From the NCBI GenBank assembly GCA_965204745.1, contig OZ242010.1:4608001-4672000 (forward strand): DNA of 64,000 nt, read 5' to 3'. This DNA comes from Candidatus Latescibacterota bacterium (GTDB taxonomy: Bacteria > Latescibacterota > UBA2968). The position numbers and the translations under genes are program-made. The notes beneath the pieces were generated by a model that was not told the origin of the DNA, ran no database searches, and worked only from the letters and a program-made list of their open reading frames with translations. Shown in pieces: positions 26,276 to 27,895 of the stretch. The stretch's first letter is position 1. Each line of letters begins with the position of its first letter.

Positions 26276-26340
26276 ACGGGAGACGCAAGAGGCAAGAGGT
26301 AAGAGGCGAGAGGCGTAAGAGGTAAGAGGCAAGAGGCAAG
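26276..26340. repeat. (G[C/T]AAGAG)n heptamer tract forming the left flank/target of the IS110
   Basis: gacgcaagaggcaagaggtaagaggcgagaggcgtaagaggtaagaggcaagaggcaag. Confidence 0.9.
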
Positions 26341-26355
26341 ATACTCTCTTAAAGG

Positions 26356-27363
26356 TCAAGGGGATTGCGGGGCGATTCGATAGAATTTCTCGCCCTCAAA
26401 ATCTTGGTCATGCCGCAACATGCCCCAGATTGAATGGAGCAACTTTCGCATCACCGCAACGATAGCCTGCAAAGGTTTCTTGCCGCGGGCAATGAGTTGG
26501 TCATAGAAGGCTTTGACATGGACTTCGTGTCTGATGGCCACCCAGGCAGGCATATAGAGGGCATGGCGGAGGTACTTATTCCCGGTTTTCGAGATGCGTC
26601 TTTGTGGGTTGGCGGTTCCGGATTGTTTGGGTTTGGGATCCAGGCCTGCATGTGCGACCCACTGGGGCGGTTGCATCTCCTCAGGCAAAAGGGTCAACTC
26701 GGCCAAGAGCCGCAAGGCGCTCGTTTGTGCGATGCCAGGCGTCGAGCAGAGGCGTTGGTAGGCGCGCTTGAGGGTCTCATCGTGCAAAACGAGATCGAGG
26801 GCTTGGTCTTCCAAGTATGCAATCCGGCGTTTGAGGTGTCGAATATTCACCTGAATATCGCGTGCGATGCGCCGTGTGCTCAGGATGTGGTAGCTTTGCG
26901 CGTGGTTGCGGCTCTGTTCACTGATGATCACCTGCTTGAGTTGGTCAATGCGTCTGGTGAGGGCTTGCAGTTGAAGCCGTTGCTCACTCGGCGCTTGCCA
27001 AGGCACAAACGGCATGCGCTCGGCATAATCCATGATCAACAACGCATCCTTCGCATCCGTCTTGGCTCGTTGCATGCGGGCTTGACCGTACTTGCTCATC
27101 GCTTTGGGATTGACGACCATGACCTTTGTGTGGCGATGCCGATGCAAGGCCAAGGCCACCCCCAAGCTGTAAAGCCCGGTCGCTTCGAGGCACACAGAGA
27201 CCATGTGCCCGCCCTTGGTGAGCCACTTCAGCAACCGCTTATGGGCTTGGGGATCATTGGCAAAGGTCGCTTGCATGACAGCTTGTCCGGGTCTGGACAG
27301 GGCAACAGACAACGTGCGGGCACTGACATCAATGCCGGCGAAAGCGGGTTGAGATTTCGACAT
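26356..27363 (-). CDS. IS110 family bridge recombinase (DEDD RuvC-like domain + Tnp domain)
   Basis: GIDVS, LEATG, KTDAKDA (DEDD); PGI, KQSGT (catalytic Ser), GNKYLRHALY, AVMRKLL; SD AGGAGG. Confidence 0.95.
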   Translation of the reverse strand: MSKSQPAFAGIDVSARTLSVALSRPGQAVMQATFANDPQAHKRLLKWLTKGGHMVSVCLEATGLYSLGVALALHRHRHTKVMVVNPKAMSKYGQARMQRAKTDAKDALLIMDYAERMPFVPWQAPSEQRLQLQALTRRIDQLKQVIISEQSRNHAQSYHILSTRRIARDIQVNIRHLKRRIAYLEDQALDLVLHDETLKRAYQRLCSTPGIAQTSALRLLAELTLLPEEMQPPQWVAHAGLDPKPKQSGTANPQRRISKTGNKYLRHALYMPAWVAIRHEVHVKAFYDQLIARGKKPLQAIVAVMRKLLHSIWGMLRHDQDFEGEKFYRIAPQSP

Positions 27364-27429
27364 GGGGGCCTCCTGTGATGAGGGGTTGTAAGGGGTCTGG
27401 TGTGCGCTCGAGTTCGATCCCGACCATTG

Positions 27430-27615
27430 ACGCCAAGTCTACCGGTCTTGTATATGCAGCCTCAAGGGACTTAGATACTCTTCGGCATAGACCCGGCGGT
27501 CGGGGGGCCTATCTTACCTACAAGGTCATCGCCTTCAAGAGGGGCCGGCCTTCCCCGAGCCGGGCATCAAGATGGCTTATCTCGATACGAGGGCGCAACT
27601 CCTAATTAACCCTTA
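27430..27615 (-). ncRNA. Bridge RNA with target-binding and donor-binding loops
   Basis: Stems 27492-27509/27547-27564 and 27437-27444/27483-27492 enclose guides at 27536-44 and 27512-19 (target) and 27473-81 and 27446-53 (donor); RNA ends approximate. Confidence 0.85.
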
Positions 27616-27895
27616 CTTCCAAGATACAAGAGGGGATATACAAGAAGAAATACGGAGGGACGCGACGAGAGGCGAGGGCGAATAGCGACTTGCCTCTCGT
27701 CTTTTTTGCTTGCTTTTTTTTGGGGAACTTGTTTAAGTTTTGGGCTTTGGAAAGGGCGGGAAAGCCCATGCCAGTCGCGTTGAGAATTGGGTCGTATTTG
27801 TTTCTCTTTTGGCGTGGAGATGGCAAGGGTCTTACGAAGTGTTGAGATAAAACGTATGGTTGAGGATAACCGAGACCTGCTTTTGCAAAAGTGGT

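Follow-up and report, generated by a model that had tools for sequence, protein, structure and literature searches.

An IS110-family element within a heptamer array

The window, a stretch of 64,000 nucleotides from a Latescibacterota genome, carries at 26341-27630 on the minus strand an insertion sequence (IS) of 1290 bp, counted with one copy of its core dinucleotide. Taken as a whole, the evidence is best explained if this is an active IS110-family element guided by a bridge RNA, a reading that we hold with high confidence. The recombinase gene (26356..27363, minus strand), preceded by the putative bridge RNA, encodes 335 amino acids with DEDD and Tnp domains. Its product matches PF01548 over residues 9-151 (82.2 bits, cut-off 29), the C-terminal Tnp domain PF02371 (71.7 bits, cut-off 21.3), and NF033542, 'IS110 family RNA-guided transposase' (212 bits, cut-off 140). 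The nearest match in PDB, and the best solved relative, is ISCro4 (9t56, E 7.9e-41, aligned residues 7-332), compared here by protein sequence only. The second match, IS621 of Escherichia coli (8wt6), has the same two Pfam domains but is a distant relative (E 1.9e-36). Alignment with both shows that the GID (GIDvs), EATG (lEATG), KTDxxDA (KTDakDA) and SG columns are kept, including the catalytic D, E, D and D of the RuvC-like domain, listed for IS621 in excerpts of PMC11208158 as D11, E60, D102 and D105 beside the catalytic S241/G242. The Ser-Gly pair of the present protein ('...kqSGt...') aligns with 'yeSGs' of IS621 and, via a +2 offset of the PDB chain, probably corresponds to S241/G242. 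An intact recombinase ORF is found in 51 of the 52 full-length copies in the genome, and all 57 PF01548 matches in that genome belong to one family, the heptamer-targeting IS. Relatives of the recombinase also occur in genome records of Latescibacteria / Latescibacterota.

The ends of the element, as defined by alignment of the 52 full-length copies, have no terminal inverted repeats. Only the 2-nt core, CT in the orientation of the recombinase and AG on the plus strand, is repeated at both ends. In the window the left junction reads ...gaggca-AG / atactctc, with the core AG at 26339-26340, and the right junction reads ...gataca / AG-agggg, with the core at 27629-27630 and AGGGG at 27631-27635. 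The left flank (26266..26340, plus strand) is read in the sequence as a purine-rich heptamer array (GTAAGA CGGGAGA CGCAAGA GGCAAGA GGTAAGA ...), whose final 7 nt, AGGCAAG (26334-26340), combine the right-target half with the core AG, in its wobble (C) variant. On the right, the core AG and the left-target half AGGGG (27629..27635, plus strand) belong to a flank consisting of just AGAGGGGA, followed by unique sequence. An earlier note on this DNA had described the IS as sitting at aggca-AG-agggg in a heptamer tract, and both junctions are as it described them, with the left flank being the tract. The span that it gave, 26276-27660, located the element correctly but was slightly generous in extent.

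Close to these ends lie two candidate promoter boxes on the minus strand. A candidate -35 box, TTGACC (26354..26359), lies at the element's 3' end and overlaps the stop codon, and a candidate -10 box, TATCTT (27621..27626), lies just inside the 5' end. In a circularised element the computed gap between them across the joined ends is 17 nt, and the pair could thus form a junction promoter assembled upon circularisation. Excerpts of PMC11208160 place the -35 box of the IS621 promoter at the opposite element end.

Predicted bridge RNA and its guides

The 5' non-coding end of the element folds, in individual predictions and in a consensus fold of 11 relatives, into two stem-loops, each with an internal loop. 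The predicted bridge RNA extends approximately over 27406..27614 on the minus strand and would comprise a 5' hairpin (27588-27564), a target-binding stem-loop (27550-27506) and a donor-binding stem-loop (27504-27419). Applied to the 11 relatives, from one of whose sequences it had been drawn, this structure leaves 88.9% of cells paired, against 26-46% in slid controls, and both sides have changed in 14 of its 41 pairs, a level reached by 0 of 500 shuffles. An Rfam 15 scan of 25500-28500 returned no bridge-RNA family, the only match being a sub-threshold and unrelated one to Pedo-repair.

The target guides occupy the two sides of the first loop, one 5' and one 3', and include the core, as excerpts of PMC11208160 define them for IS621. 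The left target guide (LTG), CCCCUCU (27538..27544, minus strand), is identical in sense to the left target and core (CCCCT-CT) and would therefore pair with the bottom strand. The right target guide (RTG), AGGUAAG (27513..27519, minus strand), is the reverse complement of the core and right target (CT-TACCT), and its U is able to wobble-pair with CT-TGCCT too. In the second stem-loop, the left donor guide GAGUAUCU (27473..27480, minus strand) matches the element 3' end with the core (GAGTAT-CT), and the right donor guide AUACAAG (27447..27453, minus strand) is the reverse complement of the core and the element 5' end (CT-TGTAT). The core is thus included in all four guides, each of which matches its own end or flank. 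The earlier note had the guides specify AGG(T/C)AAGAGGGG, and indeed CCCCUCU and AGGUAAG together yield AGGYA-AG-AGGGG on the plus strand. IS621, according to excerpts of PMC11208160, likewise has a 5' non-coding guide RNA with target and donor loops, a CT core in all four pairings, and in each loop a 5' side in top-strand sense and an antisense 3' side.

These features suggest a mechanism. The 5' non-coding end would encode an RNA with two internal loops, of which the donor loop (GAGUAUCU / AUACAAG) would recognise the IS's own joined ends around the CT core. The target loop (CCCCUCU / AGGUAAG) would recognise CCCCT-CT-TRCCT, which is AGGYA-AG-AGGGG on the plus strand, the point within purine-rich heptamer arrays where a unit GGYAAGA adjoins a unit GGGGAGA. 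The recombinase, with its DEDD RuvC-like and serine Tnp domains, would exchange strands at the core, so that entry would create no duplication beyond the 2-nt core. The rise to 52 copies may be owed to the large number of arrays and to their mostly intergenic position. Transcription of the RNA, its ends, formation of the circle and a promoter spanning the circle junction are all predictions from the sequence.

Copies, flanks and empty sites

Collection of all 52 copies with their flanks, one of the checks suggested in the earlier note, showed that 45 carry the guides of the window copy (CCCCUCU / AGGUAAG). The exact 12-mer AGGYA-AG-AGGGG flanks 37 of these 45, as AGGTAAGAGGGG in 20 cases and as AGGCAAGAGGGG in 17. 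Taken by halves, the left-flank pattern is present in 41 of 45 (AGGTAAG in 24, AGGCAAG in 17) and the right flank AGAGGGG also in 41 of 45, in a tally in which two rows, the window copy and the copy at 5198951 (with a 1-nt insertion near its end), were corrected by hand. The eight same-guide copies off the 12-mer lie at AGGTAAGAGGTA (four), ACGGGAGAGGGG (two), GGGCAAGAGGGG (one) and AAGTAAGAGGGG (one), and in each of these insertions one guide is matched fully and the other just in part. They resemble the 'half-match' recombination of large, cargo-carrying IS110 elements that is described in excerpts of two preprints (10.64898/2026.08.14.744561, 10.64898/2026.08.31.748434). Tandem heptamer units, at least two, occur within 60 nt of 50 of the 52 copies, and the remaining two lie at an AGAGGGG half-site; the case that the earlier note had named as telling against it, copies at repeat-unrelated sites, is thus not borne out. 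Eight copies are identical to the window copy, and in a 96% subfamily 30 copies are mutually identical; together with the intact ORFs, this points to recent activity.

When the flanks of the element are joined via a single AG, the sequence of an empty site results. This sequence, AGGYAAGAGGGG, occurs as an empty site 70 times in the genome, where base composition would by chance predict 1.8; the reversed pattern is found 0 times. Both variants of the 12-mer together make up 107 sites. Those with the Watson-Crick base (T) are occupied in 20 of 25 cases and those with the wobble base (C) in 17 of 82 (Fisher p = 1.2e-7); occupancy at AGGTAAGAGGTA is 4 of 87. The U of the RTG had been expected to pair with both GTAAGAG and GCAAGAG, and the 17 insertions at C sites bear this out, at an occupancy far below that of T sites. 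IS621 offers a parallel in excerpts of PMC11208160, having an abundant intergenic repeat as its home and a G-U wobble at its commonest natural target (ATCAGGCCTAC versus ATCGGGCCTAC).

Several sites listed in the earlier note lie in the window itself and are all present. The perfect empty site, AGGTAAGAGGGG at 41982..41993 (plus strand), opens a heptamer array 3 nt past the stop codon of lepA (TIGR01393, 973 bits) and is one of just five empty Watson-Crick sites in the genome. The wobble site, AGGCAAGAGGGG at 22440..22451 (plus strand), is at the end of an array. Partial GCAAGAGGGG sites occur at 5831-5840 (minus strand), 10668-10677 and 16385-16394.

An empty form of the occupied site was also recovered, as the earlier note had proposed to look for. 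In two other runs (X2 and X7), contigs connect 26329 with 27627 and omit 1297 nt, the length of the IS and one heptamer unit together, at a depth that resembles that of the single-copy flanks. These contigs come from one study, are short (36 and 45 nt on the shorter side) and were placed at 90% likeness. Other contig joints, such as 26359 to 27498, whose shorter side has just 21 letters, were discounted.

If the heptamers at the ends were part of a longer element with repeats of its own, the shared flanks would have no bearing on target choice. BLAST alignments among copies do extend 5-70 nt into the flanks, and copies of an 88% subfamily have about 45 nt of left flank in common. Past the 12-mer, however, the order of units and the length of the array vary between flanks, which are often unique within 10-20 nt. 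The 70 IS-free sites, IS-less arrays at orthologous places in two sister genomes (G018 and G016) and the contig allele without exactly the IS also argue against a longer element, and the flank that the 88% subfamily has in common is more easily explained if this subfamily inserted into a different repeated element. We therefore regard the longer element as extremely improbable. The data support the view that the heptamer repeats of the host genome are the target of the IS and that empty sites remain: the guide segments match one junction in the 7-base repeats, and so the IS lands almost only there.

Guide variants within the genome and in sister genomes

Copies with other guides lie at other flanks, which these guides match. 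At genome position 1297035 lies a copy with guides UCCCUCUC / AGGUGAG, inserted between AGGTGAG and AGAGGGA. Members of the 88% subfamily have guides CGCCUCU or UGCCUCU / AAGUAAG and are inserted between AAGTAAG and AGAGG(C/T)(G/A). A mosaic copy at genome position 602781 has guides that mismatch its own flanks. The IS of G018 has guides CGCCUCU / GGGAG and the right-target-side flank CT-CCCGTCT in 15 of 18 loci, and that genome holds 129 empty GGGAGAGGYGA sites. In G016 the guides are UCCYCCU / AGAAAAG and the flank is CTTTTCT in 7 of 8 loci. Targeting of an abundant repeat is thus no general rule for the IS, as it does not hold in G016, where the 12-mer that the guides specify, AGAAAAGGRGGA, has just one empty copy.

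Across the four guide types of the present genome and the two sister genomes, the loop sequences change with the flanks and the scaffold is constant. This covariation bears on whether the site might be chosen by the protein alone, or by the DNA structure of the arrays, with the RNA matches being coincidental. RNA guidance is deduced here from sequence; one IS110 member, according to excerpts of a preprint (10.64898/2026.03.19.712850), also requires a DNA hairpin at its target, and 19 inverted array pairs exist in this genome. Coincidence would nevertheless have to account for loops that vary in step with flanks, and for the match of both target and both donor guides with the core in each; we consider it very unlikely. 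A structural co-requirement at the target would supplement guidance by the RNA, not replace it, and RNA guidance remains the reading adopted here. Compared with IS621, what differs is the presence of 52 copies in one genome with several guide variants coexisting, each on its own array variant.

The heptamer arrays

The genome contains 683 heptamer arrays. Counts of (GGYRAGA)x3 are 610 here, 263 in G018 and 0-5 in each of the genus's remaining 19 genomes; the arrays are thus abundant only in the present genome and one sister, each of which has an IS tuned to its own arrays. In G016 the IS is present, the arrays are absent and the guides specify a different sequence. An IS-less array stands at an orthologous gene end in G018, and a short form of it in G016. 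A crude ORF proxy for intergenic status shows strong depletion of arrays within ORFs, with 31% of array bases and 180 of the 683 arrays still inside proxy ORFs. Because of this depletion, the 'safe harbour' that the arrays might offer the IS is a reasonable inference, and they may act as harmless landing places. Array orientation relative to the neighbouring proxy genes (130, 85, 68 and 65 over the four arrangements) gave no clear preference. In three cases only a few nt separate a stop codon from the start of an array.

Most arrays are direct repeats; inverted purine-run pairs, with the inverted run within 40 nt, number 19. The target therefore differs from the palindromic REP target of IS621, being the junction of two unit variants in a tandem 7-nt array. 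As a direct tandem array it is without the REP-type palindrome by which the targets of IS621 and of ISPpu9/10-type members are recognised. ISPpu10 and ISPpu9 of Pseudomonas putida, also IS110 elements, are described in excerpts of the literature as inserting into a repeated intergenic REP, in 'safe zones', and as linked to large rearrangements and amplifications. They share with the present element the use of one repeated intergenic sequence as a target, and differ from it in that their REP-type targets form hairpins.

It could also be supposed that causality is reversed and that the IS or its recombinase creates or spreads the arrays, seeing that long arrays are found within the genus only in the two genomes with an IS tuned to them. 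Such an origin is hard to reconcile with 683 arrays against only 52 IS copies, with G016, which has the IS and no arrays but has short proto-arrays at orthologous gene ends, and with a known mechanism that has no step for adding 7-nt units. Moreover, a second, unrelated heptamer family, CAGTNGT, has expanded in the genome with no IS110 aimed at it. Arrays made by the IS are accordingly very improbable, if slightly less so than the two alternatives weighed above.

Rearrangements at the repeats

For the suggestion that the IS drives rearrangements between repeats there is a hint only. All three copies tested lie at synteny breaks, their flanks being apart in relatives, and two further breaks occur at other repeats in the same 20 kb. 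Because breaks are frequent at other repeats too, no enrichment at IS copies can be claimed from these three. Cumulative GC skew, tried for inversions at IS copies, has no clean two-arm shape and so yields nothing readable on inversions.

The wobble site at 22440-22451 is the left edge of a 5.2-kb stretch (22452-27630) that is absent from the corresponding place in G016, ends in the IS and is bordered by AGAGGGG on both sides. With the IS at its end and AGAGGGG at both sides, it resembles the arrangement in the cargo-carrying IS110 elements of the preprints. The IS-less contig allele marks a difference from them, as it suggests that the adjoining segment can persist where the IS is missing. 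A composite of IS and cargo is not established for 22452-27630, the IS-less allele fitting a simple insertion beside a pre-existing segment. For the truncated gene at 26179-26274, a search of the genome for the missing part found just a 44% paralogue.

A broader possibility, which we put forward tentatively and think more likely wrong than right, is that arrays and IS are a co-diversifying pair and that the recombinase is a main cause of scrambled gene order in this lineage. Fast-mutating arrays would make new unit junctions, which guide variants (four types here and others in the sisters) would partition among themselves. Full-match and half-match recombination at several hundred near-target sites would then scramble gene order, and could carry neighbouring DNA with the IS, as perhaps in the AGAGGGG-bounded stretch 22452-27630.

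Significance

A limited literature search found no paper on an IS110 element that targets heptamer arrays; the supplementary natural-target tables of PMC11208160 may include this element or a similar one. The mechanism is known, and what is new is a further, clear example, in which logic like that of IS621 and REP is applied to a tandem-repeat target. Since the mechanism is already established, the element is valuable as an example resolved in detail and as a supply of natural guide variants. Its 107 sites are a natural data set for target reading by a bridge RNA in the cell, contrasting occupancy at Watson-Crick sites with that at sites with a single G-U wobble, to which are added the eight insertions with one matched guide and several natural retargetings, both within the genome and between sister species. 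The element also indicates that a tandem simple-sequence repeat is usable as a landing pad by the IS110 class, beside REP-type palindromes, and it flags an uncultured lineage for the study of very abundant heptamer arrays.

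The element and its insertion site

Both junctions of the IS110-family element read on the plus strand as the earlier note had described them, ...gaggca-AG/atactctc on the left and ...gataca/AG-aggggatat on the right, with a slash at the element boundary. The left flank (26266-26340) is a purine-rich heptamer run, while the right flank holds only AGAGGGGA and then unique sequence. An alignment of 52 full-length genomic copies places the ends at 26341 and 27630, for a length of 1290 bp with one core counted. The element has no inverted ends; its two sides share only the 2-nt core (CT in recombinase orientation), and just 15 nt separate the stop codon from the 3' end. 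Were the ends joined, TTGACC, which overlaps the stop codon, would lie 17 nt upstream of TATCTT, a candidate promoter like the one that IS621 assembles at the junction of its joined ends (described in a passage of PMC11208160).

The recombinase ORF (26356-27363, minus strand; 335 aa) carries PF01548 and PF02371 and scores 212 bits against the NCBIfam model 'IS110 family RNA-guided transposase', whose cut-off is 140. Its closest solved relatives are ISCro4 (9t56, E 7.9e-41) and IS621 (8wt6, E 1.9e-36), and the GID, EATG, KTDxxDA and SG columns are kept in alignments with both. By a mapping that relies on an inferred +2 offset of the PDB chain, these columns would correspond to IS621 residues D11, E60, D102, D105 and S241, whose mutation abolishes recombination (PMC11208158).

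Five further sites named in the earlier note (5831-5840 on the minus strand, 10668-10677, 16385-16394, 22440-22451 and 41982-41993) are all present. The perfect site, 41982-41993, starts 3 nt past the stop codon of lepA (611-aa ORF; TIGR01393, 973 bits). In the three cases looked at, a heptamer array begins only a few nt from the preceding gene's stop codon: behind lepA (window 41976-41993), behind a gene ending near 22396 (window 22394-22400) and behind the left-hand neighbour of the copy at genome position 4781704 (about 1440-1500 of L001).

The bridge RNA

The 5' non-coding stretch of 266 nt, up to the start codon, has a predicted fold of one 5' hairpin and two longer stem-loops, both with an internal loop. 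In the first loop, the left target guide CCCCUCU (5' side, 27544-27538, minus strand) runs in the sense of CCCCT-CT, the left flank joined to the core, and the right target guide AGGUAAG (3' side, 27519-27513, minus strand) is the reverse complement of the core plus right flank, CT-TACCT. The second loop holds the left donor guide GAGUAUCU (27480-27473, minus strand), equal to the element's 3' end plus core, and the right donor guide AUACAAG (27453-27447, minus strand), the reverse complement of the core plus 5' end. Guides are arranged in the same way in the two loops of IS621, as defined in PMC11208160.

Eleven RNAs were aligned: the window copy, four other copies from the same genome (G000), three loci from sister genomes in the genus (two from G016, one from G018) and three more distant relatives. 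The scaffold is kept and the loop segments vary. Across the tested structure, which was taken from one of the aligned sequences and is therefore somewhat favoured, 88.9% of cells pair and both sides have changed in 14 of 41 pairs. None of 500 shuffles matches that two-sided change, and slid controls are only 26-46% paired. A scan with Rfam 15 matched no bridge-RNA family.

Genomic copies and site occupancy

G000, a single 5.48-Mb contig, contains about 20 fragments in addition to the 52 full-length copies, 51 of which have an intact 335-aa ORF; all 57 PF01548 matches genome-wide come from this one element. Eight copies match the window copy exactly, thirty copies within a 96% subfamily are identical among themselves, and five copies belong to an 88% subfamily. 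The guides CCCCUCU / AGGUAAG are carried by 45 copies. With the site of each copy taken as its two flanks joined through one core, and two rows of the tally hand-corrected from the flank alignment, these 45 sites read AGGTAAGAGGGG (20 copies), AGGCAAGAGGGG (17), AGGTAAGAGGTA (four), ACGGGAGAGGGG (two), GGGCAAGAGGGG (one) and AAGTAAGAGGGG (one). Each of the eight exceptions pairs fully with one guide and partly with the other. At least two tandem heptamer units lie within 60 nt on one side of 50 of the 52 copies, and the remaining two still have an AGAGGGG half-site; the check named in the earlier note, for copies inserted at sites unrelated to the repeats, therefore does not refute its claim.

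Unoccupied AGGYAAGAGGGG sites number 70 in the genome (5 with T, 65 with C) against 1.8 expected from base composition, and the reversed target pattern is absent (0). Occupancy, counted as standing copies rather than rates, is 20/25 for the Watson-Crick site and 17/82 for the wobble site (Fisher p = 1.2e-7), so that the U of the right target guide does accept the C variant, as had been proposed, but at a clear cost relative to T. Sites that mismatch the left guide at two positions are occupied in 4 of 87 cases. Outside the window, at G000:C1:1121593-1124181 on the same contig, two full copies of different subfamilies stand in tandem, 9 bp apart (AGAGGTAAG), one having entered the array unit immediately next to its neighbour.

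Natural guide variants

The copy at genome position 1297035 carries the guides UCCCUCUC / AGGUGAG between flanks AGGTGAG and AGAGGGA, a perfect match that takes in a paired change at the position directly after the core. In the 88% subfamily the guides are CGCCUCU (UGCCUCU in one copy) / AAGUAAG and the flanks AAGTAAG (4/5) and AGAGGCG, AGAGGTG or AGAGGTA, the differences between guide and flank being G-T wobbles. A mosaic copy outside the window (G000:C1:602781-604072) resembles this subfamily over the initial ~150 nt at its 5' end and the other subfamilies over the rest; its subfamily-type guides mismatch its own flanks, which suit the guide type of the 1297035 copy. This discord points to inter-copy recombination or to a guide provided in trans.

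A search of 30 other genomes found related elements in three. The G018 element (79% DNA identity, 18 loci) has the guides CGCCUCU / GGGAG and lies within heptamer arrays, with TC(G/A)CCT-CT at one junction and CT-CCCGTCT at the opposite one (15/18); 129 empty GGGAGAGGYGA sites occur in that genome. The G016 element (83%, eight loci) has the guides UCCYCCU / AGAAAAG and the right flank CTTTTCT in 7/8 loci, and its guide-specified 12-mer has only one empty copy in G016.

Heptamer arrays in the genus

A scan for at least three tandem units of the purine-rich pattern found 683 runs in G000, 27.7 kb in total, with GGCAAGA, GGTGAGA, GGTAAGA and CGGGAGA as the commonest units. By a crude ORF proxy that takes in 87% of the genome, ORFs contain only 31% of run bases and 403 of the 683 runs lie entirely outside them; orientation relative to neighbouring genes shows no clear preference. 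Among 21 genomes of the genus, (GGYRAGA)x3 occurs 610 times in G000, 263 in G018 and 0-5 elsewhere (G016 = 0), and the target 12-mer 70 times, 12 times and 0-4 times in G000, G018 and the remainder. Each of the two long-array genomes therefore holds an IS suited to the array variant found there, and G016 has the IS without the arrays, its guides specifying something else. Where the gene left of the 4781704 copy ends, G018 carries an array without the IS, and G016 carries a stub of 2-3 units in the same place; at this site at least, the arrays are older than the insertions. G016 also has a short array stub at the place matching the window insertion site.

At the end of some arrays (window 22440-22500 and 10668-10710, and genome-wide), AGAGGGG-TGGCC leads into heptamer units in inverted orientation (TTCTCAC GTCTTGCC...), an arrangement predicted to give imperfect hairpins. 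A purine run is followed by a pyrimidine run within 40 nt in 19 cases, with a gap of 10 nt in 10 of them. A second, unrelated heptamer family of CAGTNGT units (GTCAGTT, CAGTGGT, CAGTAGT; TRF arrays 139, 94 and 70) is hugely expanded, as at window 42118-42145 and 28330-28400 and genome-wide, its 3-unit pattern occurring 1036 times in G000 and 0-58 times in 20 other genomes of the genus (G018 = 1). No IS110 element in G000 is aimed at it.

Alleles and rearrangements

Alleles were compared on assembled contigs only. In X2 and X7, sequencing runs of one study, a contig connects 26329 to 27627, omitting 1297 nt, that is, the 1290-nt element and one 7-nt unit, with seven letters ambiguous at the joint. 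Joint depth (5.2 and 37.9) is similar to that of the single-copy flanks (6.3 and 25.1). Right-flank contigs of two other runs, X3 and X10, extend 9-10 nt into the element end and represent filled alleles. Because the shorter joint sides are 36 and 45 letters, this is moderate evidence for an IS-less allele in X2 and X7, not proof.

For all three copies tested (the window copy against G016 and G018, two others against five genomes), the flanks map far apart in relatives. Window 17000-22419 and 27688-32436 adjoin in G016, and between them G000 has an additional 5.2 kb (22452-27630) comprising inverted heptamer hairpins, a 3.6-kb gene segment, the array and the IS. AGAGGGG stands at both edges of this stretch, and G016 has a single ...GAGAGAGGGGGATCC... 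at the undisturbed junction. The gene segment is placed elsewhere in G016 and G018 and terminates in a truncated gene: a 31-codon ORF (26179-26274) represents the N-terminal part of a 256-aa gene, complete in G018 (L044, minus strand, 855-1625), and breaks off exactly at the array start. The rest of that gene is absent elsewhere in the genome, which has only a 44% paralogue near 3.41 Mb. The 5.2-kb stretch resembles the cargo-carrying half-match products described in two 2026 preprint abstracts (10.64898/2026.08.14.744561, 10.64898/2026.08.31.748434). The IS-less contig allele is moderate evidence, not proof, that the IS can be missing while the neighbouring segment stays in place, and two more breaks lie at other repeats in the same 20 kb. 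Moreover, homologous recombination ordinarily acts on sequences such as these 52 near-identical 1.3-kb copies. For these reasons the case for the element driving rearrangements between repeats is suggestive only.

At another synteny break, window 32757-33213 is a ~450-bp repeat of which G016 and G018 have dozens of copies at 77-89%. Contig depth rises 50- to 200-fold in four runs over window 28186-28450, which contains pyrimidine-rich heptamer units and other repeats upstream of an ABC-transporter-like ORF.

Relation to known IS110 systems

Judged from sequence, the element appears to have every sequence-testable membership feature of IS110 bridge-RNA systems. Like IS621 it has guide loops and a CT core and homes to a repeat that is abundant between genes, and in both many natural sites are wobble matches (for IS621, a section of PMC11208160). 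It does not belong to the REP-targeting members, because what it targets is the point where two unit variants meet within a direct tandem array of heptamers. A literature search over article full texts found no paper on a tandem-heptamer IS110 target. That guides covary with targets across natural IS110 elements has been published before (PMC11208160). The present element is a well-resolved one, with an unusually rich collection of natural sites and guide variants.
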